Positions 11,068-64,000 are shown, counted from the stretch's first letter. The stretch: 64,000 bases of DNA from an uncultured Gammaproteobacteria bacterium (GCA_964403585.1 CAYOFQ010000001.1:76456-140455); one strand, 5' to 3'. A program made the numbers and translations. Notes: generated from the sequence alone by a model not told the origin.

Positions 11068-11073
11068 GACTAC

Positions 11074-38194: not shown

Positions 38195-38196
38195 AT

Positions 38197-38484: not shown

Positions 38485-38493
38485 GGTTTACCT

Positions 38494-39696: not shown

Positions 39697-39737
39697 TTAT
39701 TGACAATGTAACTCAAAAAAAGAATAATACCCTTAAT

Positions 39738-40127: not shown

Positions 40128-40169
40128 GCCGATCTTTACATCCGAAAATAAATAAACTACGCTTAATTA

Positions 40170-42351: not shown

Positions 42352-42394
42352 TCATTGACAATAACCCGCAATCAATGCTATAAATAAACCAATA

Positions 42395-42660
42395 TCTGCC
42401 TGCCATACGAATAGGTATAAAGCCGTGAGTTGGTTAGAAACAACCCACAAGTAAGAGTCGCGCCTTACTGGCTGAGCGCCAAATACGCTACGGAAATATT
42501 CGATCCGTATAAAACGAAGCATCGCCTACGCGGTCACGAGTGCCCTGATGGGAATACTATTAGGGAATCAAGGTGGTACCACGAGTAACTCCCATCCTGT
42601 CAGGAAGAGATCTCGTCCTTGGAAATAACTTTTGTTGTTTTCAATGACGGGATTTTTTAG
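42395..42660 (+). promoter_or_regulatory. T-box leader upstream of argS
   Basis: The conserved T-box sequence aatcaaggtggtaccacg sits at 42566-42583. The leader follows a promoter (ttgaca at 42354, 18-nt spacer, tataaa). Confidence 0.6.
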
Positions 42661-42674
42661 TAAGGTGGTTATAT

Positions 42675-44585: not shown

Positions 44586-44631
44586 ATGCCTTTCTGATGC
44601 TAATATAAGTCCATTATGGTACAATAGAACA

Positions 44632-45540: not shown

Positions 45541-45589
45541 AATCCACCATATTGCCGGGTAAGGGAGAAAAGTTGTATCATCTAAAGAT

Positions 45590-46858: not shown

Positions 46859-46906
46859 CGCCCATTCTTGACGCCTGCGGTATTGGACAAGTATAATCGT
46901 TAGGAT

Positions 46907-47506
46907 ATGTCCAATGTGCTCAAAGAACGTACTCTTATTGTCATAAAACCTGATGCTGTCAAACGTGCCCTGACAGGCACAATTATTAAGAAGTTTGAAG
47001 ACGTCGGATTGAAGCTGGTCGCCTGCAAAATGATCGTAGCCTCAAAGGAACAAGTTGAAGGGCACTATCCGATCAAAGATCCCAACTGGGTACGCATGCT
47101 CGGCGAAAAAACCTTAAAAACTTTTTCCGATCTGAAACTTGATGTAAAATCCAAATTAGGCACCGATGACCCAATGGAACTGGGACACGACGTTGTTAAC
47201 AAGCTGGTTCAGCATTGGTCCGAAGGACCGGTCATTGTTATGATCTGGGAAGGTCCACACGCCATTGAAGTTGCCCGTAAACTGCGGGGTGTCACGACAC
47301 CATTACAAGCCGAACCCGGATCCATTCTGGGTGATCTTTCTTTTGATTCACAACTGATCTCAAATACGTTAGGCAGAGCCATGAAGACGTTTGTCCATGC
47401 CTCCGGCGAAACCAGTGAAGCAGATCGGGAGATTAAGCACTGGTTTGGTGAAGAGGCCACGCTCTACGACTATTACAACCGCACCGATCACTCTGCCATG
47501 TTATAA
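46907..47506 (+). CDS. ndk: Nucleoside diphosphate kinase-like protein 1
   Basis: NDK fold with LIVIKPDAV and the active-site His in TFVHASGE. It is extended relative to the canonical form. Confidence 0.75.
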   Translation: MSNVLKERTLIVIKPDAVKRALTGTIIKKFEDVGLKLVACKMIVASKEQVEGHYPIKDPNWVRMLGEKTLKTFSDLKLDVKSKLGTDDPMELGHDVVNKLVQHWSEGPVIVMIWEGPHAIEVARKLRGVTTPLQAEPGSILGDLSFDSQLISNTLGRAMKTFVHASGETSEADREIKHWFGEEATLYDYYNRTDHSAML

Positions 47507-47537
47507 ACATATTTTACTAAAGAAAGGCCTCCAGGCT

Positions 47538-48161
47538 ATGGAAAAACCGCAAAAAGAAAAAACCTTAATTGTTATCAAGCACGACGGAGTAGCTCGTGGA
47601 ATCATTGGCGAAATTATCCATCGCTATGAAAAAGCCGGCTTAAAAGTTGTCGCCATGAAGATGTTGCACCCTACCAAGGAAATGGCCGATAAACACTACC
47701 AGGCAACCCCGGAAGACCTTGAGAGAATGGGCAATAATACCCTCCGTGATGCCGCCGAAAAAGGCGTCGATGTCAAAATCAAATTCGGTACAGATAATGC
47801 TCAGGAGATTGGCAAGTTTATCAAGAAGTGGTTAATCGACTATCTAAACGAAGGTCCGGTGATCGCTTTTGTACTGGAAGGATATAATGCAATTAAAATT
47901 GGCCGAAAAATAACCGGGGCAACACTTCCTTCTGAAGCACTCCCGGGAACTATCCGTGGTGATTTAACTCACGACAATCCTGAATTGGCCAACTTCTATG
48001 ACCGCCCGATGCGCAATTTGGTACACGCTTCAGGTAAGCCAAGCGAAGCTGAATTTGAAATCAACTTATGGTTCTCTTCCGACGAAGTCTTTTCTTATGA
48101 TCGTGTTGATGAAGAGGCCATGTTCGGTCCAATCAAACCTGTCCAGCCCAAGCAAAATTAA
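47538..48161 (+). CDS. Nucleoside diphosphate kinase-like protein 2 (tandem paralog)
   Basis: Start at the ATG at 47538 (MEKPQKEKTLIVIKHDGV...). Active-site His in NLVHASGK. The ORF-track start at 47391 would overlap the upstream gene. Confidence 0.75.
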   Translation: MEKPQKEKTLIVIKHDGVARGIIGEIIHRYEKAGLKVVAMKMLHPTKEMADKHYQATPEDLERMGNNTLRDAAEKGVDVKIKFGTDNAQEIGKFIKKWLIDYLNEGPVIAFVLEGYNAIKIGRKITGATLPSEALPGTIRGDLTHDNPELANFYDRPMRNLVHASGKPSEAEFEINLWFSSDEVFSYDRVDEEAMFGPIKPVQPKQN

Positions 48162-48191
48162 TATACTTGTAAGGAATAGAGAGAATATCAG

Positions 48192-49301
48192 ATGTCTAAT
48201 TATGTTGTTTCCCGCTTGCCTAAATCTAAAGTTAAAGTAGAGATGCATATCTCCAAAGATCAAATTGAATCAGCTTACAAAAAAGCCTTGGCCCGCATTG
48301 CCGAGGAAACACATCTACGCGGGTTTAGAAAAGGTAAGGCTCCCCAAGAAATGGTTGAGTCCGCTGTAGGTCAGGAAAAAATCTACGAAGAAGCTCTTAA
48401 TAGACTCCTGCCTAATGAACTCGAAGCAGCACTGAAAGAAGAAGCCGAGAAAAATAAGGACGAGCGATTTATCGTACTCGACTACCCTAATTTCAATTTA
48501 ACTAATCAGTGGAAACCCGGTGACGACTTGGATGTCACTGCTGAATGTACTCTTTATCCTAAAGTTAACATCGAAAAGTTAGCCAGTCAGCTCAAAGTTA
48601 CCAAAGAGCTGCCACCGGAAGTTACCGATGAGCAGGTTAATGAATCAGTAGGTAAAATCTTTGAGCAGTACAAGCGAATTAAAGAGGAAGAACAAAAGAA
48701 AGCAGCGGAAAATGTTGTAGCAAATAACGCCGCGCTTGTTGATGCTAAAGGAGATACTTTGATACAAAATACACAGGACGATGTAGCCATGGACGATACC
48801 TTTGCACAGGCTGCCGGCGCTAAAGACCTGGAAGATCTCAGGAAGATGGTCAAGTCTGAACTACAATATGAAAGTTCTACCACTGTCGAACGGGACTTCG
48901 AAGATAAAGTTATCAAGAAAATGCTCGAGCTTGTCGATATTGATGTGCCGGATATGCTGGTTCATGAGGAACTGCACCGAATCGAAGACCGCTTCAAGGA
49001 ACAACTATCTCGCATTGGAACTACTCTGGAAAACTATCTGAGCATTGAAAATAAAACTGAAGAAGACATCCGCCAAGAATGGAACGACCGGGCTTTGGAA
49101 AATACTAAGGTTGCCCTTATCTTAAATGAAATTAAGGTTGAAAAAGATTTACCGGTAACGGATGAAGAAATCAAGTTCCTGGCCATGCAAAACGGTGTGA
49201 AAAATAACATGACTGAGCAACAGTATACTTCAATTAAGTACTTACTGGGTCAATCTAAAGCACTTCAGGAAGCTAAGAAAATGGCTGAAGAGAAGCAATA
49301 G
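48192..49301 (+). CDS. tig: Trigger factor (short form)
   Basis: Ribosome-binding N-domain with a GFRKGKAP loop. C-terminal helical arms are present, and the PPIase domain appears absent or reduced. Confidence 0.75.
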   Translation: MSNYVVSRLPKSKVKVEMHISKDQIESAYKKALARIAEETHLRGFRKGKAPQEMVESAVGQEKIYEEALNRLLPNELEAALKEEAEKNKDERFIVLDYPNFNLTNQWKPGDDLDVTAECTLYPKVNIEKLASQLKVTKELPPEVTDEQVNESVGKIFEQYKRIKEEEQKKAAENVVANNAALVDAKGDTLIQNTQDDVAMDDTFAQAAGAKDLEDLRKMVKSELQYESSTTVERDFEDKVIKKMLELVDIDVPDMLVHEELHRIEDRFKEQLSRIGTTLENYLSIENKTEEDIRQEWNDRALENTKVALILNEIKVEKDLPVTDEEIKFLAMQNGVKNNMTEQQYTSIKYLLGQSKALQEAKKMAEEKQ

Positions 49302-49341
49302 GTTTACCAAAGATTCTGCCCTAAGTTCCGTATAATAAAAC

Positions 49342-50253
49342 CTAATCAATGACCGGATTCAAAGGAGCGCCGCTCACTGATGATGAGCTAAAAGCAAACC
49401 AGGCTACCAGTGAAATTATTACTATCGCCAGGAACAACGACACAAATAGGAAGATTGGTTTAACCCAACCGGCGGATCTCTTTTTCTCCTGATTCCGTGG
49501 TACCGCTGCTTCCCGTGGACTATAGGTGTACGTTGAGGAGCGTGGCTCGTCGCTGACATATGCCGCATCGGTATCATATTCTTCTAATTCCACCTCATCA
49601 TTAGTGTCTTGCAAATCAAAAATGTGATTAAATTTTTCCTGCTCAATGGTTGAGAAGTTATCTGAAGCAACTTGTTTGATTGGACGCGGCTCTTCAGTTA
49701 CCGGTGTTGGCACAGCTGTTTGAACAGGCTCTGGAGCATGGTAAACCGGTTCTTCGACTTTCTTTTCAGTATGTGAAGAGTACTCCAAAGGGGTGTAAGC
49801 ATGTTCAATGTTCATGCTGGTATATGAAGAAGGCCGGATCTCAAGCTGAGAGTCTATCGAATGTTGCACTAATTCATCTTGGACACCCGGCTCAATAACC
49901 TGAATATATTCATCTACCGAGTCTTCTTCAGGTTCAGGTACGTGCACGGCTGTCTGTGCTGTAAGGTCACTTGGTGTAACTAAGGGTTCCGAAGGTAACT
50001 GCACTGCGGCTGGATCTATCGTTGTCGCTACTGGGGTTACCGGCGTGACTGAAGGTTTTTCATACGCGGGGGTTTGTATAACATCATCTAATTGCTTCTT
50101 AGTGTATCTTCGTATACCTGTCGGAGTGCGTTCTGGCACCAGGAAACCTTTTTTCTCCCATCGTCGTAGTGTAGATGCCGATACACGGAGATAGTCGGCT
50201 GCTTCGGTAATGCCTAGATATTCTGATTCGGAGGTTTGAGTAACGGTATCCAT
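49342..50253 (-). CDS. MerR/excisionase-type HTH protein with disordered linker and C-terminal TM anchor
   Basis: The N-terminal HTH is LGITEAADYLRVSASTLRRWEKKGFL, and the C-terminal TM is IFLFVSLFLAIVIISLVAWFAF. It is transcribed divergently from the giant gene. Confidence 0.6.
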   Translation of the reverse strand: MDTVTQTSESEYLGITEAADYLRVSASTLRRWEKKGFLVPERTPTGIRRYTKKQLDDVIQTPAYEKPSVTPVTPVATTIDPAAVQLPSEPLVTPSDLTAQTAVHVPEPEEDSVDEYIQVIEPGVQDELVQHSIDSQLEIRPSSYTSMNIEHAYTPLEYSSHTEKKVEEPVYHAPEPVQTAVPTPVTEEPRPIKQVASDNFSTIEQEKFNHIFDLQDTNDEVELEEYDTDAAYVSDEPRSSTYTYSPREAAVPRNQEKKRSAGWVKPIFLFVSLFLAIVIISLVAWFAFSSSSVSGAPLNPVID

Positions 50254-50718
50254 AGGCTATCTAAAATTAACTAAATGAATACTAACTGATAATATCTCTC
50301 AGGTCAATACCAAATAAATCACCGTCCGGTATAAAAATTTCTGAAAATAAGTAATTACACTACCTGCATGCAGCCCTATAATACTAAAAAATGAAAGTCG
50401 TGAAAACAATTTTTTATATACAAGAGGAAAATGTATTAAATTAAAGTATATAAGGTACACAATATATTCTAGCATTGCAATAATTTAATACTAAAATATC
50501 AAAGTAAAATAAGTATCACAAAATTAACTAAGTAAATTATATAACAATATATACAATAATTTTAGAAAAAAATTTAGACCAAAATCCCTAATTTTCATAA
50601 AAGTTTGAAAATAAATAGAGTAATACTCGTTCTCAATCAGTTCGCCTGGTTAAATATATTCAAGAGGAGATATCGCCATGCTATTGACACAATATCCTAA
50701 ATAGGTAACACTAGATTA

Positions 50719-53700
50719 ATGGCTGCCCACCAAAAACATACATCTTCGTTTCGAGCTCAATTTCTCCAGGCTGAGCAAGAGGGGAGAACCATCGTAGATA
50801 TATGTAATGAGTTCAATATTTCCAGAAAAACCTATTACAAATGGAAAAACCTTTTTGAGAAGAATAATTCGGTTGAAAACCGCCAAAGAGGACGCAAAAA
50901 GACAGTCGACCCACGCATCGAAAAGATCGTTATCGACTTAATCAAATTAAATCCAGGCTGGAGTGTCGATAAGCTGTACCTCTTCTTAATGGAGAACAAT
51001 AACAATCAGCAGTTGGTCAGCCGTCACTGGATCCAATTGCTTCTCCAAAAAAATAAATTAAGCACACTTGAGAGCCGGATGAAATACAGTTATATGCATT
51101 CACCCCAACCGGCTCCTGCACAGGAAGTACCTGCAGTCGAAGTCATTCCCGCAATTGAACAGCAGGCCGTCTTGCACGCGGGAGACGCCTCTCCGCCGCG
51201 AATTACCCCGTCACTCAATCTCTCCTTTGATACCATCCCTTCTTTTGCTGCATCATTATTCAATAAACAGACCGTTACCTGGTTGTTTAAATCAGACAAA
51301 CTATATCTATCTGGTACAGTTATCGTTTCAATAATTAACGCCCTCCTCGTTTCCCGCATTATCGGAGCAGTCGCGGCCGCTGAAGAGATAAGTGGTAAGA
51401 TCGGCACGTTCTTATCGGCAATCGCACTATTCTGTGGAATATTCTTCTTCCTGTATTCAATCAAATACTATATAACCATCGCCGCTGTTATTCTGAAGAG
51501 CCGTTCAGATAAGAAGAAAAGTACTTCACCTGGTCTGGTCGAAAAAGTAACCGGGGAAATTCCATACATCGGACCGGTTATTCAGTCCCTATATAAAAGA
51601 GTTACACGCACTGAATTGGATCCGGTCAGCCTGCATAAAGAAGTGCAGAATACCGAACTGACCGAATATCCGTTCTTCAGTGTGCAGATACCATTATATA
51701 ACGAAAAGAAAGTCGCCAACCGCGTTACAGCGGCCGCCGCCGCCATGGACTATCCGAACTTCGAAGTCCTGGTCTGCGATGATTCCACCGATGAAACTAC
51801 CCAATTACTCTATGACAAGTGGAACGGCCACGATAAAGTTAAGATTCTCCACCGAACCATCCGCAGTGGTTTCAAGGGTGCAGCCTTAGACAATGCGCTT
51901 AAGTACATGGATGAGCGCACCGAGTACGTCGTAATCTTTGATGCCGACTTTGTCCCGTATCCGGACACCTTACAGTTATTCGCTAAATACTTCAAAGTAA
52001 TCGGCGATCATGAGCGTAATAACACTATCAATCCAAGCATGGCTGCTGCTAATCAGGTAGTCAAAGATATTCAGGCAGCCCAGTATCAGGGTAAAACAGT
52101 TGCTGTCCAGGGGTATCAGTGGCATGTACTCAATAAATCCGAGAACTGGATCACCCGTGCGGTTCGTTCCGAGTTTGCCGGCTCATATATTATTGAGCGC
52201 TCCGGTGGCCAGGTATTCGGGCTCTTAAAACAGATCGCCGGATCAGTCTACGCCATCAATGCCAAAGTCTTGCGTGAAGTAGGCTGGGGGACATCCATTA
52301 CTGAAGACTTCCAGTTAACCTTAAAGCTGTATCAGCAGGGCTACAAGGTTGCGTATACACCATATATACAGGCACCGTCAGAATGTGTATCCACACTCAA
52401 ACGCTTAATTCGTCAGCGCCAGCGCTGGGCAGAAGGGCATTCTTTCAATATTAAGAAACAACTGTTCGCCATGTTGAAATCACCCGGCATGACGCCGAAG
52501 GAAAAATGGGAAGCTATCTATTTAACTCCTTATTACTTACAGGCATTTATCTTCATTTTAGGTTCAATCTGCTGGATCATTGCTGAAACAGTTTTGCGCG
52601 TACAACTGCCATTCTGGACTGCTGCGCTCGGCTGGTCATTAGTCTTGACCAACCTCTTCTCGTTACCGCTCATGAACACGGTGGGACTCTTCCTTGAAGA
52701 AGGTGAGGAGCGCGACTATCTCGGCATATTCTCGTTCATCACGCTCTGCTACATTCTGGCCCCGTTCATTGGTTTCGCAGCAGTCAAAGGCTTTTTGGAA
52801 AAAGAGGAAGGCCCGTGGTTCCGAACGCCTAAATCCGGACATATCACCGATAAAGTTAACCGGACTAAGGAAGGCAAGCGGGAAACAATTATCAAATATC
52901 TGCCATGGATTAAACCGGCTATCAACGTTTTTAATTCAATCATTCCTGAAAGAGCCTCATCAGCAGTCTCTCCATACTTAGCGTATGAAACTGCCGGTAA
53001 CGATTTCAACAATCCAAGACAGGAGCGAAACCGGTCGATACTCAAGAAGCGTCTGACACATTTAAGTATCTTAGTGGTACTAAGTATTACAGTTTTAGCG
53101 AACATCGCCCAAACCACCGTGCCTCAATCCTTCGCGGTAGCCAGCACGCAATACGCCCGCACGACCGACGCCGATAACCTCACGAATACCGCCACAGCTG
53201 CCCGCAAGGTATTAAGCTCTACTATTGGTGCCAGCACAACATCCAGAACCCTCGACGCTACCAACACAACCTTCTATATCCTTACCGACAACATGAACAA
53301 AAACTGGACCAACGATACTGAGATCAACGACTCCAACACCACCGGAGAACGACGCAATGTTGCCATCAGCACTGATTCAAGCGGAAATACGGTCGCTGTA
53401 TGGGAAGACTCCCGAACCACTTTAACTACTGTACAAAACCGTTTCGATAACACCCAGGGAGCTATGGGCACCGGTAGATATGCTGCGCCGGTAATCCCAC
53501 TTCTTGACGGAAGAGTCCTGATAGCTGGTGGTCAAACCAGTGGCCCCACAAACTTATCCAGCGGCGAAATCTTTGATCCGATCACCGGGACATTCTCAGC
53601 AATCGCTACCAACATGGCCAATGCTCGTTATATGGGTAATGGCACCGTCTTGAATGATGGCCGCGCCTTTTTGGTAAGTGGTGGGAGTGGCACGACCGCA

Positions 53701-56700
53701 TATTCAACTACATCATTCTTTGACCCCAACACCAATAGTTTCTCAGCAGGACCTAACATGACCACCGCACGATACTCCGCACCAATCGAAAAATTAAATA
53801 ACGGTAAGATTCTCATCATGGGTGGCTGCACCGCAGTCGATGCTGTATCGGGTACTTGTTCAAGTGGCTATCTAAGCACAGCTGAATTATACGACCCGGC
53901 TACCAATACCTGGACGCTTACAGGAACTATGAAGGACATGCGCTCCTTCCATCAGTCAACATTACTACCGAATGGTGAAGTACTGGTTGTTGGAGGATCC
54001 AACGGTTCGGCACTATCCACGAGTGAAATATACAATACGGTAACCGGAACCTGGAGGGCGGGTGCAAACATGGTCACTGCTCGCTTATTCCCGGCCTTAG
54101 CGATGGTTACCGATACCAAAGCAATGGTTGTCGGTGGTATGACCACCAGTACGGATCTCTCCAGCACCGAGTTATATGATTATGTTGCCAACACCTGGAA
54201 CAGTAATGGAAATATTAACAGTGCTAATGTTGGTGGCTTCATGCGCAATGGTTTTATGAAATTAGCTAACGGTAAATTCCTGTTGGCTGGGTCATATAAA
54301 TCTACCGATGCCGGCAATCCAAGCAGCACGGCGCTCTTATACGATCCATCTATTAATACATGGTCAACCGTCAGCAATAACATATCCACACCTAAGTCGC
54401 TCTTCAATATGGCCTTATTGCCCAACGGCGATATATTACTTCCAGGCGGTGTAACAACAGGTACCAGCTCTACAACTAACTCCAATCTCTACACACCAGT
54501 CACCTATGATATCTACGCTCAGAAATACGATAAAACCGGAGCCAAGCTCTGGAACTCCGGCTCAGATATTCGCGTAAACTCCGACGATGGAAACCGCCTC
54601 TCAGCCTCCGGACCACCAAACTACAACCATTTATTCCCAACTGTCGGGATTGATGGTTCGGGTAACGCGGTCGTAGCATGGGCCGAGCAACGCGACGGAG
54701 TCTACTCACCAAGCATCTGGGCACAGAAACTGCAATCTTCAGACGGTAGCAAACTATGGCCAAGTGGTACAAAAAATGCGTTTGCCGCGACCGGCAACAA
54801 TCTTTCTCAGATCAGAGGAGGAGACAACACTTCGGCCACAACCATGGTCACTCCCGATGGAAGATTATTCGTTGTTGGCTCAGAATTAACCGGTGCTCCT
54901 CGTACTTCATCAGATATCTACAACCCAACCACCAATACCTTCTCGGCCGGACCTAATACTGCAGTACAGCGTTCCAACGCCACTACCGTTCCGCTCATGA
55001 ACGGGAAAATACTCGTGATTGGCGGTAACACTGGTACTCTGGCCAGTACCGCTGCTCAATTATATGATCCCGTCACCGGTACCTATGCCACCACCACCGG
55101 CGGTAACATTCATGTCCGCAGCGGACCTCAGGCAACTTTGCTTAAGAATGGCAAGGTATTCATCACCGGTACCAACCTCGATCCTGGTGCGGGTCAGTCT
55201 GTATCGGAAATTTATGACCCGGTCACTAATACCTTTGCACTTGGCCCGACTCTCAATTTTAACCGTCGTTTGCATGCACAGGCACTCTTACCAAATGGTA
55301 AAGTCATTATTATTGGAGGCATTGGCTCAGGTGCTGCACCAACGGTACCTGAAATTTACGATCCGGTCACAAATACCATAACTATATCAAACGCACGCAA
55401 TGCCAATAAAGCACGTTCAACTGCAGTAACGCTTAACAACGGAAAAATACTCCATATTGGATCAGCCAGCTCTCGCAGTATCGCTGAACTATATGATCCG
55501 TTAACTGACGACTTTACTGACGCCGGATGGACGAGCAAGTTCATTGACCGAGTTCACGATGCTGCAGTTGTTCTGCCAAATGGAAAGGTACTTCTAGCTG
55601 GTGGCACAGATAGTGCTGGTACAACAGATTTCTCTTCAACCGAAATCTACGATCCGGCGACCAATACCTGGTCTCCGGGACCGAACATGGCCGCTTCCAG
55701 AAGGCAGGCGAATTTGACCTTTATACCGAAATCACACAAAGTGCTGACGTACGGAGGCAGTACCACTTCGGTGACCTCATCCTCAGCGGAAGTCTATACT
55801 CCGGTAACCGACATGCAGGTCAGCCAGTTTGACTACAAAACTAATATCATGCTGCAGGGCGCCGTTGCCGGAAATATCACAGGCATCTTCTATAAGAAGC
55901 CGAAGATAACGATCAATAGCACCGGGGATGCCGTGATCGCCTGGCAGGAAAACAAAGACACTCGAACAGCCTTCCAGGGATTGAGTCATGCCTTTGATGC
56001 CAATGCGCGCTACGATTATGGCCGAAACCCCGCGGTAGTAGGTAACTGTCAAAACGGAACTGGTTGTGGAGCGATCCCGTCAATAATATCTCCACCGATA
56101 CAAATTGCCGCACAACGTATCTGTAACCAAGCGTCCTGTACCGATGCCGGCACCACTTCCGGCGAACGAACCTGGGGAGATACACAAAGTCTCTACAACC
56201 AGAATATGCCCGAAAATATTTACGTATCGAATGTACGTAACGCCCGCAATGTAAATGTTACCAGCGATGGCACCAGCACTGCTCTCATTTACGAGTCGGA
56301 TTCAGGTTTGTCACAAGATCTCTCCACAACCAGTAAGACCGATCCGAAAACCAGCAAAATATACATGCAAAAACTTGATGCCGATGGTAAAACTCTATGG
56401 ACGGGTGGTTGGACAGCTCCATCCGGCGGCATGGTCTCCAACCGCAGAACACAAACCACCACCTTGCTACCAAACGGCTCAGTTCTCCTGGCCGGAGGAC
56501 AAAATGGTTCAGCGCTATCTTCAGCAGAAGTACACAACCCTGAAACATTAACCAGCGTCGCTGCCACTAATAATATGCCGGTGGCTCGAATCAATCATTC
56601 CGCGACGTTACTTAATAACGGCAAAGTTCTCATCTCCGGAGGCGGTACCACCAGCTCTACCTCCAGCTCAACCGCGGATTTGTTTACGCCCAGCGGCACC

Positions 56701-59592
56701 AGCGGATCGTTCGCTGCTACGGTTGGGGCTATGAAGGTATCCCGAGCTGACCACTCTAGCGTACTATTACGTAACGGAAAGGTTTTGTTGGCCGGCGGAC
56801 GTAATGCTACTACGGCGACCTCCACTGCCGAACTGTATGACAGCACCACTGCGGTTGCCGCCAGCGCCTTCACATCTACCACCAATAACATGACTGCCGG
56901 TATTAGATACGGTCACCGCGCATCATTATTGCCAAATGGCAACGTTGTCGTTGCCGGTGGAACTAACGGAACCGGGCCATTATCCAGTGCCGAAATTTAT
57001 GATGACGCAAGCGGAACCTGGGGGAATGCCAGTATCATGGTTCAAAAACGCAGCCAGTTTAGTTTGACATTACTCCCTAATGGTAAGATCTTAGCAGTAG
57101 GCGGATGTATTGCTGGCAACTGTACTGCAGGGGCTGCTAACCGTACCTCAACTGCCGAACTCTTTGATCCATTAAAGAATGCCTGGACCAGTACCGGATC
57201 CTTAGTAATTGGTGTCCGCTCCGAACACAGCGCATCATTACTACCTTCAGGTAAGGTTGTTATCTATGGTGGAACAACCGACGGTACAACCTTCCTGTCC
57301 ACAACCGAGATCTATGATCCGGCAACGGGTACCTTTACCGCAGGGAGCACTGCACAGACAGGGCGACGCGATCACGACGCCATAGCGTTAACAAATGGTA
57401 AGGTCATGACCTTTGACGGATGGAACGGTACTACTACATTCTCAAGCTCCGAATTACTCTCGTTCGATCAGCAGATTTCCACCGGAAATGCAACCCAATC
57501 CCAGAATCCGGATGTTGTAAAAGACAGCTCCGGTAATCTGCAGGCCGTTTGGCAAGCGTGGAGGGCAGAAGGCCTTGGTTTGGGCAGCGGTGGTGGTTCT
57601 TGGAAAGTAATGACTCAGGAAATAAATAATCCAGCTTCAGGAGCAGTAACCAAACAATATCCTTCGGGAACAGTTAATAGTTGGGCAACTTCTGCAAATA
57701 TGTCTACAGCCCGCCGGGATCACGCCTCGGTGCTTCTGCCAAACGGCAAAATTATAGCTGGAGGAGGAATTGATCAATCATCCGGTCAGTTGAGCTCTAC
57801 GGAAATATATGATCCACAAACAGGAACATGGTCTGCTGGAGCTACTATGGTTAATCACCACGCCGGATTCGCCATGTTTACACTCAGTTCCGGAAAAGTT
57901 ATAGCTTTTGCCGGATACAATGCCGGCTCCAATAAGACTGACATTTATGACCCGGCAGCTAATACCTGGACCGCGCCCACATCAGCAAACCTGGTATTAG
58001 CACACTCAGAATATGCAGTGACAGCGTTGAACGACGGAAAGATTATGCTTGTCGGAGGACAGGACGGCAATAGTACTGCGATGCGTACAACCTCTGAACT
58101 ATTCGACCCAGCAACGCAAACCTGGACCAATACAACTGGCGGATTAACAACCGGTAGGCAATATTTTAGTGTGACCAAAACCAATGACGGAAAAGTGTAT
58201 GCCATTGGTGGGTGTACTAATGCCTCGACCTGTTCAGGCGCGAACATCGTTAACACCATTGAAGTATACAATCCAAGTACCTCTACCTGGTCATCGGTAT
58301 CGGCTACTTTAGGGACCGCACGATTCCGTCACAACGCTACACTCTTACCCAACGGTAAGATCTTGATTAATGGAGGTCAGAATAGTTCCGGTACCAACTT
58401 ATCTTCAAGTGAAATCTTCGATCCGAACTCCTTAACCATTACGACAGCCGCCACTGCACCGTTCTCAAGTTCCAGAGGGAATAATCCATTACCTTACAGT
58501 GCGACACTTTCAAATGGCAAGGTCTTCTTAACAAGAGGCATTGCATCAAACTCGACTGCAACGCAAACAATGTTATACGACCCGACGTCAGATACCTGGG
58601 CTTCAACAACCGGAGGCTTATCCAAAGGCTATTACGCTGCAAGTATTATTGGAATGAAAAACGGTAAAGTACTCATCATGGGCGGATCGGATAGCTCTAC
58701 AAACTACTACTCCAGTTCAGAATTATATACTCCGGAGTTGAGCGAACAACCCGTATCCAGTGACGATTCATCAGTCAACTATGATCAGACCGAGCCGAAG
58801 ATTGGTGCAGATACTGCCAATGCGTACAGCTACGTAGCCTGGAATGACGATCGGGTAACATCTCCATCAGACACCACAGGGGAAATGAATATCTACATGC
58901 AAAAACTTGATGGAGGGGGAAATCCGGTTTGGCCAAACGGACTTGGTGAAAACGGCTCATATAACGTTCGCGATACCCGCGTTGACACGACCCGCGGCAG
59001 CTTAAATACGTCTGTACAGACAGGTGTAGCCATCGCTAAGAGCGTCTTTACCAATACCGCAACTGATGTTCCAATCCAATTGGCCTGGACAGATACTCGT
59101 GACGGTACCCCAACATCCAGTATTTATGGTCAGTCATATAACACACGAAATTACAGTATGAGTTCAACTACGTGGACGGCGTACTATTACATTACCGGCA
59201 GTCCGACTAACGCCAACTCAATTAAAGTACAGGTAGGTACTACTGAATCCGATGGCGAGACAGTCAGCTACACGAGCGCTGAGTCTACGTACACAGGCGA
59301 CGGAACCAATGGGCAGAAGTCGACAGTCTTCTCGAACTTACCACCGACCAACGACACCTCACTAACACATCGTCGCTTAATTCTTAAGTTCACACGCAGT
59401 ACCGGAAGCATGACAATTTCATATAACGGCGGGGCCGGCGTAGCAGACACCAGATTAGAGGTAGGAACAATCGTGCCTGAGCGCTCGCTCATGCTGGTGC
59501 TCATTATCCCGGCTCTCCCGGCCCTTGCGCTCGGACATAAGAGATATCGCGTCCACCTCATCCGCCAGCACAATAGTAAGACTAAAGTATAG
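50719..59592 (+). CDS. Giant multidomain protein: IS3-like transposase HTH N-terminus + processive GT2 glycosyltransferase with TM helices + very large Kelch/beta-propeller repeat ectodomain
   Basis: N-terminal OrfA-like HTH (SSFRAQFLQ...ISRKTYYKWKNLFE) and HTH_21-like segment (DPRIEKIVIDLIKLNPGWSVDKLY). No DDE domain. GT2 motifs DDSTD, DAD, TED, QRQRW with flanking TM helices. More than 30 repeats of LLPNGKVL..GG...S.EIYDP.TNTW type, plus the interspersed motif IY.QK.D..G..LW. C-terminal TM plus HKRYR tail. Confidence 0.8.
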   Translation: MAAHQKHTSSFRAQFLQAEQEGRTIVDICNEFNISRKTYYKWKNLFEKNNSVENRQRGRKKTVDPRIEKIVIDLIKLNPGWSVDKLYLFLMENNNNQQLVSRHWIQLLLQKNKLSTLESRMKYSYMHSPQPAPAQEVPAVEVIPAIEQQAVLHAGDASPPRITPSLNLSFDTIPSFAASLFNKQTVTWLFKSDKLYLSGTVIVSIINALLVSRIIGAVAAAEEISGKIGTFLSAIALFCGIFFFLYSIKYYITIAAVILKSRSDKKKSTSPGLVEKVTGEIPYIGPVIQSLYKRVTRTELDPVSLHKEVQNTELTEYPFFSVQIPLYNEKKVANRVTAAAAAMDYPNFEVLVCDDSTDETTQLLYDKWNGHDKVKILHRTIRSGFKGAALDNALKYMDERTEYVVIFDADFVPYPDTLQLFAKYFKVIGDHERNNTINPSMAAANQVVKDIQAAQYQGKTVAVQGYQWHVLNKSENWITRAVRSEFAGSYIIERSGGQVFGLLKQIAGSVYAINAKVLREVGWGTSITEDFQLTLKLYQQGYKVAYTPYIQAPSECVSTLKRLIRQRQRWAEGHSFNIKKQLFAMLKSPGMTPKEKWEAIYLTPYYLQAFIFILGSICWIIAETVLRVQLPFWTAALGWSLVLTNLFSLPLMNTVGLFLEEGEERDYLGIFSFITLCYILAPFIGFAAVKGFLEKEEGPWFRTPKSGHITDKVNRTKEGKRETIIKYLPWIKPAINVFNSIIPERASSAVSPYLAYETAGNDFNNPRQERNRSILKKRLTHLSILVVLSITVLANIAQTTVPQSFAVASTQYARTTDADNLTNTATAARKVLSSTIGASTTSRTLDATNTTFYILTDNMNKNWTNDTEINDSNTTGERRNVAISTDSSGNTVAVWEDSRTTLTTVQNRFDNTQGAMGTGRYAAPVIPLLDGRVLIAGGQTSGPTNLSSGEIFDPITGTFSAIATNMANARYMGNGTVLNDGRAFLVSGGSGTTAYSTTSFFDPNTNSFSAGPNMTTARYSAPIEKLNNGKILIMGGCTAVDAVSGTCSSGYLSTAELYDPATNTWTLTGTMKDMRSFHQSTLLPNGEVLVVGGSNGSALSTSEIYNTVTGTWRAGANMVTARLFPALAMVTDTKAMVVGGMTTSTDLSSTELYDYVANTWNSNGNINSANVGGFMRNGFMKLANGKFLLAGSYKSTDAGNPSSTALLYDPSINTWSTVSNNISTPKSLFNMALLPNGDILLPGGVTTGTSSTTNSNLYTPVTYDIYAQKYDKTGAKLWNSGSDIRVNSDDGNRLSASGPPNYNHLFPTVGIDGSGNAVVAWAEQRDGVYSPSIWAQKLQSSDGSKLWPSGTKNAFAATGNNLSQIRGGDNTSATTMVTPDGRLFVVGSELTGAPRTSSDIYNPTTNTFSAGPNTAVQRSNATTVPLMNGKILVIGGNTGTLASTAAQLYDPVTGTYATTTGGNIHVRSGPQATLLKNGKVFITGTNLDPGAGQSVSEIYDPVTNTFALGPTLNFNRRLHAQALLPNGKVIIIGGIGSGAAPTVPEIYDPVTNTITISNARNANKARSTAVTLNNGKILHIGSASSRSIAELYDPLTDDFTDAGWTSKFIDRVHDAAVVLPNGKVLLAGGTDSAGTTDFSSTEIYDPATNTWSPGPNMAASRRQANLTFIPKSHKVLTYGGSTTSVTSSSAEVYTPVTDMQVSQFDYKTNIMLQGAVAGNITGIFYKKPKITINSTGDAVIAWQENKDTRTAFQGLSHAFDANARYDYGRNPAVVGNCQNGTGCGAIPSIISPPIQIAAQRICNQASCTDAGTTSGERTWGDTQSLYNQNMPENIYVSNVRNARNVNVTSDGTSTALIYESDSGLSQDLSTTSKTDPKTSKIYMQKLDADGKTLWTGGWTAPSGGMVSNRRTQTTTLLPNGSVLLAGGQNGSALSSAEVHNPETLTSVAATNNMPVARINHSATLLNNGKVLISGGGTTSSTSSSTADLFTPSGTSGSFAATVGAMKVSRADHSSVLLRNGKVLLAGGRNATTATSTAELYDSTTAVAASAFTSTTNNMTAGIRYGHRASLLPNGNVVVAGGTNGTGPLSSAEIYDDASGTWGNASIMVQKRSQFSLTLLPNGKILAVGGCIAGNCTAGAANRTSTAELFDPLKNAWTSTGSLVIGVRSEHSASLLPSGKVVIYGGTTDGTTFLSTTEIYDPATGTFTAGSTAQTGRRDHDAIALTNGKVMTFDGWNGTTTFSSSELLSFDQQISTGNATQSQNPDVVKDSSGNLQAVWQAWRAEGLGLGSGGGSWKVMTQEINNPASGAVTKQYPSGTVNSWATSANMSTARRDHASVLLPNGKIIAGGGIDQSSGQLSSTEIYDPQTGTWSAGATMVNHHAGFAMFTLSSGKVIAFAGYNAGSNKTDIYDPAANTWTAPTSANLVLAHSEYAVTALNDGKIMLVGGQDGNSTAMRTTSELFDPATQTWTNTTGGLTTGRQYFSVTKTNDGKVYAIGGCTNASTCSGANIVNTIEVYNPSTSTWSSVSATLGTARFRHNATLLPNGKILINGGQNSSGTNLSSSEIFDPNSLTITTAATAPFSSSRGNNPLPYSATLSNGKVFLTRGIASNSTATQTMLYDPTSDTWASTTGGLSKGYYAASIIGMKNGKVLIMGGSDSSTNYYSSSELYTPELSEQPVSSDDSSVNYDQTEPKIGADTANAYSYVAWNDDRVTSPSDTTGEMNIYMQKLDGGGNPVWPNGLGENGSYNVRDTRVDTTRGSLNTSVQTGVAIAKSVFTNTATDVPIQLAWTDTRDGTPTSSIYGQSYNTRNYSMSSTTWTAYYYITGSPTNANSIKVQVGTTESDGETVSYTSAESTYTGDGTNGQKSTVFSNLPPTNDTSLTHRRLILKFTRSTGSMTISYNGGAGVADTRLEVGTIVPERSLMLVLIIPALPALALGHKRYRVHLIRQHNSKTKV

Positions 59593-59765
59593 AGTGTATA
59601 AAAACTAATTCACCCATACAGTAAGTATTTTGCCATTCAGCTTCTGATTAGTATCCTCAACCCAATTTGTATTCCCTAAACTAACGTAGTTCTGAACGCA
59701 GTCCAGGGAAAACCGTAGCACAACACGCCATAAATCAAACTTCTCATGGCAGGCAAGTGGATCAG

Positions 59766-59806
59766 GTAATTTTCACACTTTATAGCAATAATAGTAGGTG
59801 TGAAAA
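59766..59806. repeat. 11-bp perfect inverted repeat between the giant paralogs
   Basis: aattttcacac...gtgtgaaaatt with a 19-nt loop. Confidence 0.5.
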
Positions 59807-59955
59807 TTATCACAACACAAGACCTGTAGCATTATTAAAAAGAATATCAAGACTCTACTAATATGAGAGAGTACCCAAGCATAAACCAGAAATAAAATAG
59901 AAAGTTTTACTCATACTATTGACATAATATGCTAATTATCCAACAGTAGATAAAG

Positions 59956-62900
59956 ATGAAAAAAGCAGTCAGATATTCCATCGGGTTTAAACAAAAAGTG
60001 CTGCAGGATCCTGAACAGAATATCGTCAAGTTGTGCCATAAATATAAAATCGACCGGACTACATATTATGAATGGCAGAAAAAATTATCCGGAAAGGTAA
60101 GTAAGACGGCTGATCAGGTAGTTTCCAAACCATCTAAACCGATTCTCAGAATCCAGGCCAGAAAGCATAGTATTGAATTTAGACATAAACTTCTTGAACT
60201 GGTCAGCGAAGGTCATTCTATTTCGGCTGTCTGCCGGGCATTAAAGATCAATCGGAGTACCTACTATAAATGGCATCACCGTTTGAATGGAAATCTGGGT
60301 TTAAGCAATAACAAACCGGGCAGTCGTGAAAGAATCGATCAACGAGTCATTAAGATAATCTTTGATATAGTAAGGGTATATCCACAGTGGAGCATTGATC
60401 AGATATATCAGTATATTCACCAGGAATCACCTGAACAGTTAATAAGCAGAGGTGCTATTCAAAAAATCTTAAAAAGAAATAACTTAAGCACAGTTAACAG
60501 ACGCCTCGCCTTTAGTTACCTGCACACACCTTCTGTCACCACAACAGTACCGGATATAACCACTACTGAAAATATCGTTCCGGTTGATCAGCAAATTATT
60601 CGATCGCGTGGAGACCCTTCACCACCTGTCTATAGTGCATCAAACCTATTCAACAAGCGCCATCAATCTGGTTCATTATATATAGCTGCAATCATCGTTA
60701 GCGCTATAGCCAATGCATATCTCCTCAGTAAGGTAATCCTTTCTATTAGTCAGACATCTGGTATATTGAATAAAATCGGCATGGGGCTTGCCTCAATCGC
60801 TCTGTTCTGTGGAATATTCTTCTTCCTGTACTCACTTAAATATTACATCACTATCGCAACTGTCATTTATAAATCTCAGAATAAAGTACGGAATAAAGGA
60901 ATACTGTCGACACTCCTCAATAAATTCTCTTCATCTCGTCAAAATATTGACCCTGTTACATTACAAAAACAGGTCATGGCAGCCGAGCTAACGGAGTATC
61001 CGTTCTTCAGCGTGCAGATACCGTTATATAACGAGAAGAAAGTCGCCAACCGCGTTACAGCGGCCGCCGCCGCCATGGACTATCCGAACTTCGAAGTCCT
61101 GGTCTGCGATGATTCCACCGATGAAACGACTCAATTACTTTATGGTCGCTGGTCAGGTAGTGATAAAGTCAAAATTCTCCATCGCGTTAATCGTACAGGA
61201 TTCAAGGGTGCCGCTTTGGATAACGCACTTAAGTATATGGATCCACGCACCGAGTACGTCGTAATCTTTGATGCCGATTTCGTACCATATCCGGACACCT
61301 TACAGCTATTTGCCAAATACTTTAAAGTAATCGCAGAAAATGAGCGTAATAATACTATCAATCCTGGCATGGCTGCTGCTAACCAGGTAGTCAAAGATAT
61401 CCAGGCAGCGCAGTATCAAGGTAAAACAGTTGCTGTCCAAGGGTACCAGTGGCATGTACTCAATAAATCCGAGAACTGGATCACTCGTGCGGTTCGCTCC
61501 GAATTCGCCGGCTCATATATTATTGAGCGCTCCGGTGGCCAGGTATTTGGACTCTTAAAACAGATCGCCGGATCGGTGTACGCGATCAATGCCAAAGTCT
61601 TGCGTGAGGTTGGGTGGGGAACATCCATTACTGAAGACTTCCAGTTAACCTTAAAGTTGTACCAGCAGGGCTACAAGGTTGCGTATACCCCATATATACA
61701 AGCCCCGTCAGAATGTGTATCCACACTCAAGCGATTAATCCGCCAGCGCCAACGCTGGGCAGAAGGACATTCATATAACATCAAAAGGCAAATCATTGCA
61801 CTTATAACCTCACCAAACATGTCTCTCCGCGAAAAATGGGAAGCAATCTATCTCACACCTTACTATCTGCAGGCCTTCATATTTATTCTTGGCACTTTCT
61901 GCTGGGTTATTGCCGAAACCGTATTGCAGGTAAGACTCCCATTCTGGGGCTCTGCACTCGGCTGGTCATTAGTCTTGACCAACCTCTTCTCGTTACCGCT
62001 CATGAACACGGTGGGACTCTTCCTGGAAGAAGGAGAGGAGCGGGATTATCTTGGATTATTCTCTTTCATAACCTTATGTTATGTCCTTGCTCCGTTCATT
62101 GGCTTCGCCGCGCTTAAGGGTTTTCTCGAGAAAGAAGAAGGCCCATGGTTCCGAACGCCTAAATCCGGACATATTACCGATAAAATCAATCGCACAGACA
62201 ATAATTCATCACGTATTCTCAAGTATCTCCCGTGGATTAAACCGGCGATGGACACATTCAACAGACGTATAACTGCAAAAATCTCTCCGGCCGTATCACC
62301 GTATCTCAACTATGCTACTGCCGGCAATAGTTTCTCAAATTTCAGTGTTCCAAACAAGCGCAGCCGGATCATGAAACGGGGAATGCATACCATCATAGTC
62401 CTCGCCTTTATGGTTACTATCGCAGCTAACATCGCCCAGACTACTATTCCACAGGCATTTGCCAATCCGGACACATTCTACATTCGAACAACCACTGCCG
62501 ACAACCTGGATGATACAACGAATAACAAAAGACTGCAGGGAAGTGTCTCAATCGGATCATCAACCACAACACAAACCCTCTCTGCTACCAATCCAACATT
62601 ATACATAATTACAGATAATTTCAATAAACGCTGGACCAACGATATTCAAGTCCCTGATACTTCAAACCAGGAGCGTAGAAATGTGCAGATAGCGACAGAT
62701 TCAGATGGATCAACAGTTGCAGTCTGGGAAGATCTGCGCAACAACAGCAGCACTCATCAAAATCGCTTTGACACGACCGGAGCCATGTCTACAGGACGCT
62801 ATGCTGCGCCGGTAGTGCCATTATTGGATGGAAGAGTAGTGATAGCAGGTGGACAAACAAGTGGGCCGTCTAACCTTTCTGGTGGCGAAATTTTTGACCC

Positions 62901-64000
62901 AGTAAGTCAAACATTTACAACCGTTTCCAATAATATGGTTAACACACGATACATGGGAGTAGGTTCACTATTGGATGACGGCCGCGCTATGTTTATCAGT
63001 GGGGCTAATGGTGCTACAGCATATTCAACCACCACTATTTTTGATCCGAATACCAATACTTTTTCCGCGGGACCAAACATGTCAGCAGCAAAATATTCCG
63101 CTCCAGTTGAAAAGTTATATAACGGCAAACTTTTGGTAATGGGAGGATGTACAGCGGTAGACGCTGCCTCAGGTGCTTGCTCAAGTGGCTATCTAAGTTC
63201 GGTGGAGCTATTTGACCCTGCCACGAGTACCTGGACGTCAACCGGAAATATGTCCGTTGCGCGCTCCTTCGCGCAATCAACACTATTACCAAATGGTGAA
63301 GTGTTAATTGCAGGCGGTTCGAACGGATCAACATACCATTCATCAACAGAAATATACAATCCCGTTACAGGAACATGGAGAAAAGTACCGGGGATGGTAC
63401 AAGGTAGATACTTAGCCGCAATGGCGCAAATTTCCGACACTGAAGTAATGGTTGTTGGGGGTGCAGATGGTACTTCAGATTTTTCCTCAACTGAAATCTT
63501 CGATATTGTTGCAAATACATGGAGGAGCAATGGCAATATTAATAGCACCAACAGAGGAGGATTTTTAGCAGATTCATTTATTAAATTGCCAAACGGTAAA
63601 ATATTACTTGCTGGTGCATATAGAACACAAGACGCGTCCAATCCAGTCAGTACAGCCTTACTCTATGATCCAATTGCCAATACCTGGGCTAGTACAGGAA
63701 ATAATCTAACACTCAGCAACGCGCTCTTTAATATGGCACTGCTCCCCGATGGAAAAGTAGTAATTCCAGGAGGAATGACTACCGGCACTTCTGCGACTAC
63801 CGCTTCGCATATTTATACGCCCAACAGCTATGATATTTACGCACAAAAAATAGACAGAAATGGAAATAAGCTTTGGGGTAGTGGAACAGATATTCGGGTC
63901 AACTCGGATGATGGGAATAGATACTCCTCGGGAGGACCGTTATATAATCACCTCAATCCGCATGTGGCGCTAGATTCATCCGGAAATGCCATCGTAGCCT
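59956..64000 (+). CDS. Second giant HTH-GT2-Kelch paralog (5' partial; runs off the window end)
   Basis: Begins MKKAVRYSIGFKQKVL...IDRTTYYEWQKKL. This paralog has two OrfA-like HTH repeats. The GT2 region is near-identical in nucleotide sequence to 51650-52900. Kelch-like repeats continue to position 64000 with no stop, so the gene is absent from the ORF track. Confidence 0.75.
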   Translation, partial: MKKAVRYSIGFKQKVLQDPEQNIVKLCHKYKIDRTTYYEWQKKLSGKVSKTADQVVSKPSKPILRIQARKHSIEFRHKLLELVSEGHSISAVCRALKINRSTYYKWHHRLNGNLGLSNNKPGSRERIDQRVIKIIFDIVRVYPQWSIDQIYQYIHQESPEQLISRGAIQKILKRNNLSTVNRRLAFSYLHTPSVTTTVPDITTTENIVPVDQQIIRSRGDPSPPVYSASNLFNKRHQSGSLYIAAIIVSAIANAYLLSKVILSISQTSGILNKIGMGLASIALFCGIFFFLYSLKYYITIATVIYKSQNKVRNKGILSTLLNKFSSSRQNIDPVTLQKQVMAAELTEYPFFSVQIPLYNEKKVANRVTAAAAAMDYPNFEVLVCDDSTDETTQLLYGRWSGSDKVKILHRVNRTGFKGAALDNALKYMDPRTEYVVIFDADFVPYPDTLQLFAKYFKVIAENERNNTINPGMAAANQVVKDIQAAQYQGKTVAVQGYQWHVLNKSENWITRAVRSEFAGSYIIERSGGQVFGLLKQIAGSVYAINAKVLREVGWGTSITEDFQLTLKLYQQGYKVAYTPYIQAPSECVSTLKRLIRQRQRWAEGHSYNIKRQIIALITSPNMSLREKWEAIYLTPYYLQAFIFILGTFCWVIAETVLQVRLPFWGSALGWSLVLTNLFSLPLMNTVGLFLEEGEERDYLGLFSFITLCYVLAPFIGFAALKGFLEKEEGPWFRTPKSGHITDKINRTDNNSSRILKYLPWIKPAMDTFNRRITAKISPAVSPYLNYATAGNSFSNFSVPNKRSRIMKRGMHTIIVLAFMVTIAANIAQTTIPQAFANPDTFYIRTTTADNLDDTTNNKRLQGSVSIGSSTTTQTLSATNPTLYIITDNFNKRWTNDIQVPDTSNQERRNVQIATDSDGSTVAVWEDLRNNSSTHQNRFDTTGAMSTGRYAAPVVPLLDGRVVIAGGQTSGPSNLSGGEIFDPVSQTFTTVSNNMVNTRYMGVGSLLDDGRAMFISGANGATAYSTTTIFDPNTNTFSAGPNMSAAKYSAPVEKLYNGKLLVMGGCTAVDAASGACSSGYLSSVELFDPATSTWTSTGNMSVARSFAQSTLLPNGEVLIAGGSNGSTYHSSTEIYNPVTGTWRKVPGMVQGRYLAAMAQISDTEVMVVGGADGTSDFSSTEIFDIVANTWRSNGNINSTNRGGFLADSFIKLPNGKILLAGAYRTQDASNPVSTALLYDPIANTWASTGNNLTLSNALFNMALLPDGKVVIPGGMTTGTSATTASHIYTPNSYDIYAQKIDRNGNKLWGSGTDIRVNSDDGNRYSSGGPLYNHLNPHVALDSSGNAIVA

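Follow-up and report, generated by a model that had tools for sequence, protein, structure and literature searches.

Concerted evolution of bacterial paralogs by gene conversion is known from tufA and tufB; other described systems with a bearing on the present locus are the antigenic-variation cassettes of Neisseria (pilE/pilS) and Borrelia (vlsE) and the membrane-tethered one-component regulators of the ToxR/CadC type. The Patescibacteria, or Candidate Phyla Radiation (CPR), account for a large part of bacterial diversity and are believed to attach to hosts, and very little is known of their cell surface. In a 2018 survey of prokaryotes no more than 26 genes showed concerted evolution that recurred (PMC6053082), and in Streptomyces a cellulose-synthase-like family 2 glycosyltransferase (GT2) works with an extracytoplasmic, membrane-anchored protein of the Kelch-type beta-propeller class, the CslA-GlxA system (PMC11022532). 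The DNA analysed here (the window) is a stretch of 64,000 nt filed under an uncultured Gammaproteobacteria bacterium (GCA_964403585.1, CAYOFQ010000001.1:76456-140455), although its source is taken here to be one of the Patescibacteria. Two giant genes, copy 1 and copy 2 (products p1 and p2), lie in tandem in the window. By sequence, p1 and p2 belong to a large Patescibacteria family of membrane proteins with many domains, as yet uncharacterised, in which a helix-turn-helix (HTH) region precedes a GT2 core and an ectodomain. The best explanation of the data, which as a whole we consider quite probable, is that these are tandem CPR-family genes of old duplication whose core patches have been overwritten by gene conversion, and that they encode surface glycan synthases. 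The locus differs from cases of the tufA/tufB type in that conversion is restricted to one domain of a multidomain gene, between flanks whose subfamilies parted long ago, its tracts are short and differ in age, and the family is CPR-specific and uncharacterised. As in the long-lasting, recurrent cases of that survey (PMC6053082), paralogs that share a genome resemble each other more than they do orthologs, several lineages are affected, and the effect is homogenising. Like pilE/pilS and vlsE, the window holds tandem related genes for large, predicted surface proteins with conversion between copies; unlike them, both copies have their own promoter element and start codon, there are no silent cassettes, and conversion hits the conserved cytoplasmic enzyme core and not the exposed variable part, and on these grounds the locus was not classed as an antigenic- or phase-variation cassette system.

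Copy 1 is a complete open reading frame (ORF) of 2957 aa, and copy 2 opens at 59956 and stays unbroken to the window end at 64000 (1348 aa visible), which bears out the original prediction of collinear giant paralogs on one strand. By blastn of copy 1 against the window, three collinear blocks of similarity were found: 51653-52922 against 60983-62249 (83.6% identity, 1273 nt), 53235-54593 against 62565-63917 (65.7%, 1377 nt) and 51419-51492 against 60794-60867 (83.8%, 74 nt), the last being a patch of the N-terminal transmembrane (TM) region. The GT2 segments are in register at a constant offset of 9330 nt, at which ungapped identity over 51650-52900 was 82.6%. Bins of 90–98% identity (51700-51800, 51900-52400, 52600-52700 and 52800-52850) are interspersed with bins of 52–78%, and the longest exact runs measure 92 and 68 nt (Table 1). 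The similar GT2 tract is real and far above chance, but its earlier description as a near-identical tract of ~1.2 kb was overstated for a mosaic of 83% overall. The HTH and Kelch parts are far more diverged (44–56% and 53–72% nucleotide identity, respectively) and an extra N-terminal HTH repeat is present in copy 2, both as previously described; the antisense ORFs reported to mirror each other at 51810-51995 and 61140-61394 are present, as mechanical ORFs only.

Silent (pS) and replacement (pN) differences were calculated by the Nei-Gojobori method on the codon alignment of p1 and p2. Silent sites were saturated (pS 0.74–0.88) in the HTH, TM, linker, post-TM and Kelch parts; with saturation over most of both genes the duplication is shown, at the level of sequence divergence, to be old. 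In three tracts of the GT2 core (A, C and E; Table 1) pS was 0.10–0.38, and in the GT2 patches that separate them it was 0.8–0.96 despite a conserved protein (pN 0.03–0.22); amino acids are conserved throughout the core (pN 0.00–0.22). Among the 360 core codons that encode the same amino acid in both copies, identical codons were strongly clustered (runs test, p=5e-5), with up to 29 of them in an unbroken series (p=7.5e-4). An old duplication with no conversion, the core having stayed alike through strong purifying selection on the protein, would fit a pN near zero and a core that is extremely conserved across the family, with about 120 invariant columns among 30 sequences; however, selection on the protein spares silent sites, and yet pS is low in discrete tracts alone, next to equally conserved patches in which it is high. 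The orthologs served as the control: silent-codon identity of copy 1 to copy 2 was 0.83 in tract A, 0.78 in tract C and 0.84 in tract E, against 0.48, 0.42 and 0.48, respectively, to the closest ortholog (locus L077), and that of either copy to the three orthologs (L077, L080 and L001) was 0.42–0.52 in the tracts, which is background. With ortholog identity at this baseline, synonymous-site constraint and protein-level selection are excluded as the source of the tracts, and the account without conversion was rated as highly unlikely. A further rival places the selection on the nucleic acid, mRNA or DNA (an RNA structure, a regulatory site within the core or codon-usage optimisation), and could draw on the coincidence of the tracts with the most conserved protein segments; it was given the least credence of all, since orthologs show no synonymous conservation in the tracts, Rfam finds nothing in them, and the paralog-specific pattern recurs in unrelated genomes with different sequences. 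Silent divergence between the copies is reduced, spatially clustered and at its reduced level absent from ortholog comparisons, the pattern of concerted evolution by interlocus gene conversion, which was found at the window locus and in four other genomes. Conversion of the catalytic core, as originally proposed, is upheld by the pS tracts, the codon clustering and the ortholog control.

The closest ortholog comes from a genome whose arginyl-tRNA synthetase (ArgRS) is 74% identical to that of the window. Orthologs were reached via neighbouring genes; the protein homolog search gave no giant family members, and its best match was 45% identical although an ortholog of 59% identity exists. Sites at which p1 and p2 agree against L077 were counted alongside sites at which p1 and L077 agree against p2, giving 9 and 0 in GT2 tract C (binomial p 0.004), 11 and 26 in the 'post' segment (aa 731-890; p 0.02) and 113 and 28 in the first Kelch propeller (aa 891-1320; p 3e-13). 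The neighbouring post and Kelch segments are incongruent (Fisher p=1.5e-8), and in the GT2 patches between the tracts (B and D) p1 is slightly nearer L077 than p2. Outside converted tracts p1 is shown by these alignments to be nearer an ortholog in another genome than its own tandem partner. Amino-acid identity of the first propeller is 69% between the paralogs versus 42–45% between orthologs, and the ectodomains therefore do not appear simply to be diverging freely; silent sites of this propeller are near saturation between p1 and p2, which fits an exchange older than those in the core. The single-HTH form is common to p1 and all three orthologs, and p2 has retained two HTHs, as in the consensus of the family; relatives with ArgRS identities of 64% and 59% have one giant gene between a MerR-like and a DUF2723/TMEM260-like gene. 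Had the ~1.25 kb core been duplicated or replaced just once, in recent time, and then decayed in the ordinary way, the similar region would form one contiguous collinear block, as it does. Such an event predicts uniform silent divergence, whereas pS alternates from 0.10 to 0.96, patches B and D are no nearer between the paralogs than to L077, and the Kelch region requires a separate, older exchange; this course of events was judged improbable. The suggestion of a recent partial duplication in the original prediction is disfavoured accordingly by the saturated patches inside the tract, the nearness of p1 to L077 outside the tracts and the single-gene relatives. The simplest reading of the alignments is an old paralog pair between which sequence has been exchanged several times, the GT2-core exchanges being recent and later than the split from the L077 lineage.

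Whether the two copies are genuine was assessed on independent contigs. For its ArgRS the window has a 100% identical counterpart on a 1,573,555-nt NCBI contig and another on a Logan contig of run SRR16481186. This Logan contig (L076, SRR16481186_58928) equals window positions 32675-51735 over 19,061 nt with 0 mismatches and terminates at 51735, exactly 30 nt inside the 92-nt exact repeat; at position 51705 the two copies differ (A versus G). Logan assemblies are built on a de Bruijn graph with k=31, and an end k-1=30 nt into a repeat is the signature of two genuine converging paths. A collapsed repeat at the locus is very unlikely because the copies differ by 17% and L076 breaks at the repeat, although a swap of the downstream halves at the exact runs would be compatible with both observations. 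An assembly artefact in the wider sense (collapsed repeat, mis-join or chimeric consensus over the similar tract) gains some plausibility from the exact 92- and 68-nt runs, which could mislead short-read assemblers, from a contig of a sister metagenome-assembled genome (MAG; L078) that breaks inside the core, and from another tandem pair (L038) whose cores are suspiciously 100% identical. Against this, 17% of positions differ, both copies have long intact frames and their own promoters and flanks, and L076 matches faultlessly up to its stop in the 92-mer, so that an artefact was regarded as very improbable.

Core-restricted conversion was then found beyond the window. More than 1000 homologs were retrieved, the named sources being mostly Patescibacteria (Gottesman-, Woese-, Davies-, Curtiss-, Chisholmbacteria and others) and the best matches only 42–45% identical to the query; a genome scan for the family yielded 75 loci, among which copies often stand in tandem or in clusters. 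Eleven pairs from other loci show the same restriction of nucleotide similarity to the GT2 core, where silent-codon identity ranged from background (0.43–0.50) up to 0.74–1.00. Among 76 family genes the tandem partner ranked first or second as nearest neighbour of the core (73–100% amino-acid identity), and in the N-terminal region it ranked 10–59, at 24–35% identity versus 45–75% to genes of other genomes. In neighbour-joining trees the N-terminal regions of the pairs at L008, L012, L023 and L028 split into subfamilies c0 and c1 and their cores group by genome, with core identities of 82–96% within the genome versus 65–76% within the subfamily. With N-termini sorting by subfamily and cores by genome in four genomes, core-restricted concerted evolution is, on this comparison, a recurrent trait of the family. 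At L038 the core and post-core parts of the tandem pair (7858-13873 and 14061-17190) are 100% identical in amino acids and codons and the N-termini 47% identical, from either a very recent conversion or an assembly duplication. In L078 (GCA_030855825.1), the sister assembly of the closest relative, the contig ends at locus position 19192 inside the giant gene, 454 aa into it and within the equivalent of conversion tract C, a possible sign that this genome has another copy whose core is identical. Many loci of clearly Patescibacteria-like character (L001, L008, L010, L012 and others) bear the record titles 'uncultured Gammaproteobacteria', 'Bathyarchaeia' or 'Nevskiaceae', probably through labelling or binning errors in the source MAGs. 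No paper describing the HTH-GT2 family in CPR was found in the literature.

In both copies Pfam detected a transposase-type N-terminal HTH, a GT2 domain and many Kelch repeats. The GT2 models Glyco_tranf_2_3, Glycos_transf_2 and Glyco_trans_2_3 scored over their cut-offs, with domains at aa 320-644, and the D, DxD, (T)ED and Q(Q/R)xRW motifs of a GT-A catalytic domain are all present (DDSTD, FDADF, ITEDF and QRQRW) and invariant in 30 of 30 family members. TM helices were assigned by hydropathy at aa 194-246, 604-688 and 779-797, and p1 aa 1-800 were modelled with AlphaFold2 (AF2), the GT2 domain and helices mostly at a pLDDT above 85. The top Foldseek matches of the model were processive GT2 polysaccharide synthases embedded in the membrane, namely bacterial cellulose synthase BcsA (E=1.7e-15), hyaluronan synthases (HAS; E~1e-12) and PcManGT, of a minimal cellulose-synthase-like fold (TMt 0.72), and hydropathy, model and Foldseek agree on a BcsA/HAS-like predicted fold embedded between TM helices. 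Hydropathy, the distribution of K/R residues and the AF2 model together predict a topology with the HTH inside, TM1-2, GT2 inside, two TM helices plus a probable interface helix, a K/R-rich loop inside and a TM helix leading out; the ectodomain would then lie outside, followed by a final TM helix and a basic tail inside. The window proteins resemble BcsA, class I HAS and PcManGT in the GT-A domain with D, DxD, TED and QxxRW motifs, in its place between N-terminal TM and C-terminal TM/interface helices and in being best matched by them in structure; the loop WFRTPK sits where BcsA has FxVTxK. Unlike BcsA they have no PilZ domain for control by cyclic di-GMP (no Pfam match in either copy), and no BcsB-like partner was seen; unlike in BcsA and HAS, the GT2 shares its polypeptide with an HTH at the N-terminus, a giant ectodomain and an anchor at the C-terminus. 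Scores fall far below the NCBIfam equivalog cut-offs of PgaC_IcaA (83 bits vs 422), CelA (63 vs 699) and NodC (24 vs 550), which sets the proteins apart from PgaC/IcaA, CelA and NodC, and PDB sequence matches are weak (E≥1e-10) and partial (aa 307-425 or 507-575), nearly all of the stronger ones covering the first GT2 part. The product is best modelled as a processive glycan synthase that would extrude its polymer beneath its own surface ectodomain.

The HTH region matched HTH_28, HTH_Tnp_1, HTH_29, HTH_23 and HTH_32 of Pfam and the NCBIfam models for IS481 (E=6e-11) and IS630 (8e-8), both NCBIfam models at positions 2-120 only and far under their cut-offs (42 vs 224 and 32 vs 100). It is thus homologous to the N-terminal ~120 residues of IS630/IS481 transposases, unlike which the window proteins lack the DDE catalytic domain (no match past model position ~120); the window HTH is a putative DNA-binding domain. 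A mobile-element reading was rejected on this absence, on the lack of inverted repeats of at least 30 nt in 48000-64000 and on synteny with housekeeping genes in relatives. As in ToxR/CadC, a cytoplasmic N-terminal DNA-binding domain stands directly before TM helices, though the window HTH is not an OmpR-type winged helix.

Both copies are preceded by a promoter-like element (Table 1), in line with the shared promoter motif claimed earlier: the 20-nt motif CTATTGACAYAATATSCTAA occurs in the window at 50681-50700 and 59916-59935 only (0.01 expected by chance) and forms part of a family-specific element consisting of TTGACA, a conserved spacer (typically GT(T)ACCCA...) and (G/T)GTAACA(T/A). The spacer of copy 1, CAATATCCTAAATAGG, contains the palindrome CCTA-AA-TAGG. 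A loose pattern of the element gave 32 matches on the two strands of 1.13 Mb of loci, and 31 of these matches lie upstream of family genes (27 by an automatic criterion, 4 more on inspection); a like architecture was seen upstream of the orthologs and of family genes in about 45 other loci. The spacer measures 16–19 nt, and its length and sequence covary with the HTH subfamily, a covariation expected from orthology and also predicted by autoregulation. A possible role of the element is that of an operator at which the tethered HTH acts, and it may stem from the terminal repeat of an insertion sequence (IS). No Shine-Dalgarno sequence precedes p1 or p2, and the mRNA of copy 1 is probably leaderless or nearly so because the element ends 7 nt before the ATG. 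A generic sigma-70 scan was uninformative (30 sites vs 28 expected). TATAAT-like boxes stand 6–10 nt before many other start codons of the window (e.g. 272, 13000, 14959, 16051, 33755, 44632 and 46907), most of these genes being without a Shine-Dalgarno sequence, and leaderless transcripts may be common in this genome.

The ectodomain of p1 comprises about four six-bladed Kelch propellers. CslA-GlxA offers the closest functional analogy for the window genes, which were not assigned to that system: unlike CslA-GlxA they would combine the synthase and about four propellers in one polypeptide, and unlike GlxA the propellers look like generic six-bladed Kelch domains, the NCBIfam GlxA model scoring 172.5 bits vs a cut-off of 800. 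The PDB matches of the Kelch region (60 of 89 listed) are designed or eukaryotic six-bladed Kelch domains, with neither galactose oxidase nor GlxA among these 60, and a GlxA-type copper oxidase was rejected on the hidden Markov model score and these matches, neither of which gave a sign of a copper-radical site. At the C-terminus, most complete family members, whatever their ectodomain, carry (V/I/T)PE-x, a hydrophobic helix (often with PFLP or PFIP) and a K/R cluster. This layout of motif, TM helix and basic cluster is that of LPXTG and PEP-CTERM sorting signals; unlike these, the anchor is confined to family proteins and matched no known model (six C-termini against the NCBIfam sorting-domain models, nothing at E≤10). 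Across the 1.13 Mb of loci the motif is limited to the family, all 5 matches among 685 non-family ORFs being truncated or split family genes. Judged from these alignments, the family has conserved ends and a hypervariable middle. A subset of members has an extra cytoplasmic tail ending in ...DELPV.

On the sequence evidence, non-reciprocal homologous recombination between the copies has repeatedly overwritten patches of the GT2 core, leaving at least three tracts of low silent divergence. Under the explanation favoured here, that of old tandem genes with converted cores, conversion would be confined to the core because purifying selection there keeps nucleotide identity high enough to seed recombination, the flanks being too diverged. 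Each protein would polymerise and extrude a beta-linked glycan under its own surface-exposed ectodomain, and the tethered HTH would act at the family-specific promoter element. Several points weigh against this explanation. Copy 2 is incomplete and the comparison of p1 with p2 spans 1348 aa only; linkage of the flanks was judged from contigs; and the locus offers two sequences only, too few to give the direction and number of conversion events. No p2-type ortholog was found elsewhere, a scan of Joint Genome Institute (JGI) metagenomes with the p2 N-terminus giving no close relatives. The HTH-region phylogeny is noisy at 30–46% identity and discordant with ArgRS distances, so that the post segment, patches B and D and the extra HTH repeat carry most of the case for an old duplication. 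The AF2 model is of moderate confidence (mean pLDDT 71), and the enzyme product, the position at the cell surface and the binding of DNA by the HTH are predictions.

Table 1. Coordinates of the tandem genes, their parts, the conversion tracts and the promoter-like elements in the window.
Feature	Position (nt)	Residues or paired positions	Strand	Details
Copy 1 (p1)	50719..59592		+	part order: HTH, two TM, GT2 synthase, TM/interface helices, TM, Kelch ectodomain, C-terminal anchor
Copy 2 (p2)	59956..64000		+	visible: two HTH repeats, two TM, GT2, TM helices, first Kelch propeller, start of spacer
Conversion tract A	51646..51800	paired with 60976-61130	+	pS 0.10–0.38; holds 92-nt exact run 51706-51797
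Conversion tract C	51916..52400	paired with 61246-61730	+	pS 0.23–0.38; 98% amino-acid identity
Conversion tract E	52591..52695	paired with 61921-62025	+	pS 0.22–0.28; holds 68-nt exact run 52627-52694
Promoter-like element, copy 1	50684..50711		+	TTGACA, 16-nt spacer CAATATCCTAAATAGG, TAACAC; ends 7 nt before ATG
Promoter-like element, copy 2	59919..59946		+	TTGACA, 16-nt spacer, CAACAG; ends 9 nt before ATG
Transposase-type bipartite HTH domain, predicted cytoplasmic	50719..51090	aa 1-124	+	Pfam, NCBIfam; AF2 pLDDT 80–95
Two N-terminal TM helices	51298..51456	aa 194-246	+	hydropathy, AF2 helices
GT-A fold GT2 catalytic domain	51646..52488	aa 310-590	+	Pfam, motifs, Foldseek
GT2 motif DDSTD	51778	aa 354	+	
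GT2 motif FDADF	51937	aa 407	+	
GT2 motif ITEDF	52297	aa 527	+	
GT2 motif QRQRW	52414	aa 566	+	
Post-catalytic helices (two TM, probable interface helix)	52528..52833	aa 604-693	+	hydropathy, AF2
Cytoplasmic loop motif WFRTPK	52816-52833		+	invariant; resembles BcsA gating loop FxVTxK
Outward TM helix	53053..53109	aa 779-797	+	K/R-rich loop before, few charges after
Predicted ectodomain	53110..59460	aa 798-2914	+	about four six-bladed Kelch propellers with IYAQK...W spacer modules between
C-terminal anchor	59461..59592		+	VPERS, hydrophobic helix LMLVLIIPALPALAL, basic tail HKRYRVHLIRQHNSK
HTH repeats of p2		aa 1-65 and aa 66-190	+	
GT2 domain of p2	60976-61818		+	

Upstream of copy 1 lies a divergent gene (49342-50253, minus strand) for another membrane-tethered HTH protein: its HTH, at the N-terminus, is of the MerR type, its linker is long and acidic/proline-rich, and a TM helix stands at the C-terminus. 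This gene adjoins the giant gene in L001, L077 and L080, and some family members (P0115 and P0120) have a MerR HTH joined to the GT2 instead. Genes of the GT-C membrane glycosyltransferase-like type form a cluster behind the giant gene in relatives (L079 10001-19911; contig of JGI 3300071325), with TMEM260_N/DUF2723 joined to TPR, Glucodextran_B, YfhO and a second TMEM260_N, an arrangement that points to a locus for surface glycans or glycoproteins; a DUF2723 homolog of the window genome (P0243) lies on the 1.57-Mb contig. Elsewhere in the window, adjacent nucleoside diphosphate kinase (NDK) genes lie at 46907-47506 and 47391-48161, with NDK matches interrupted in both, and the pair is conserved in relatives as genes of 199 and ~206 aa. 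The region 24000-28200 is GC-rich (0.57 vs 0.44 elsewhere) with ORFs overlapping on both strands; its plausible genes encode Pro/Thr/Ala-rich low-complexity membrane or secreted proteins with no strong Pfam match, and ORF 25562-26365 (267 aa) has weak TPR matches only.

The original prediction had also taken the pair as a variable surface system, which is plausible but unproven: it fits the conserved ends and hypervariable ectodomain of the family, but conversion homogenises the conserved enzyme core and does not diversify the exposed ectodomain, and no switching mechanism was found at the locus. A wider proposal, a modular surface system throughout the CPR in which HTH autoregulation, core conversion and exchange of ectodomain cassettes act jointly, is speculative and on balance doubtful. 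Under it, the membrane-tethered, IS-derived HTH would autoregulate each gene through a co-inherited operator-promoter, conversion would keep co-resident synthase cores identical, perhaps for making the same polymer or for joint assembly, and the GT2 core on the 5' side and the VPE-TM anchor on the 3' side would serve as recombination handles for cassette exchange; if true, it would give epibiotic bacteria a changeable host-contact surface. The process seen at the window locus, conversion, is a known one, acting in an uncharacterised and architecturally unusual CPR family that joins a DNA-binding domain, a polysaccharide synthase and a giant variable ectodomain in one polypeptide under its own promoter type. 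Short-read assemblies break in the GT2 core of this family, phylogenies drawn from that core are confounded, and domain-restricted concerted evolution in several lineages would be a clear addition to the surveyed cases (PMC6053082).

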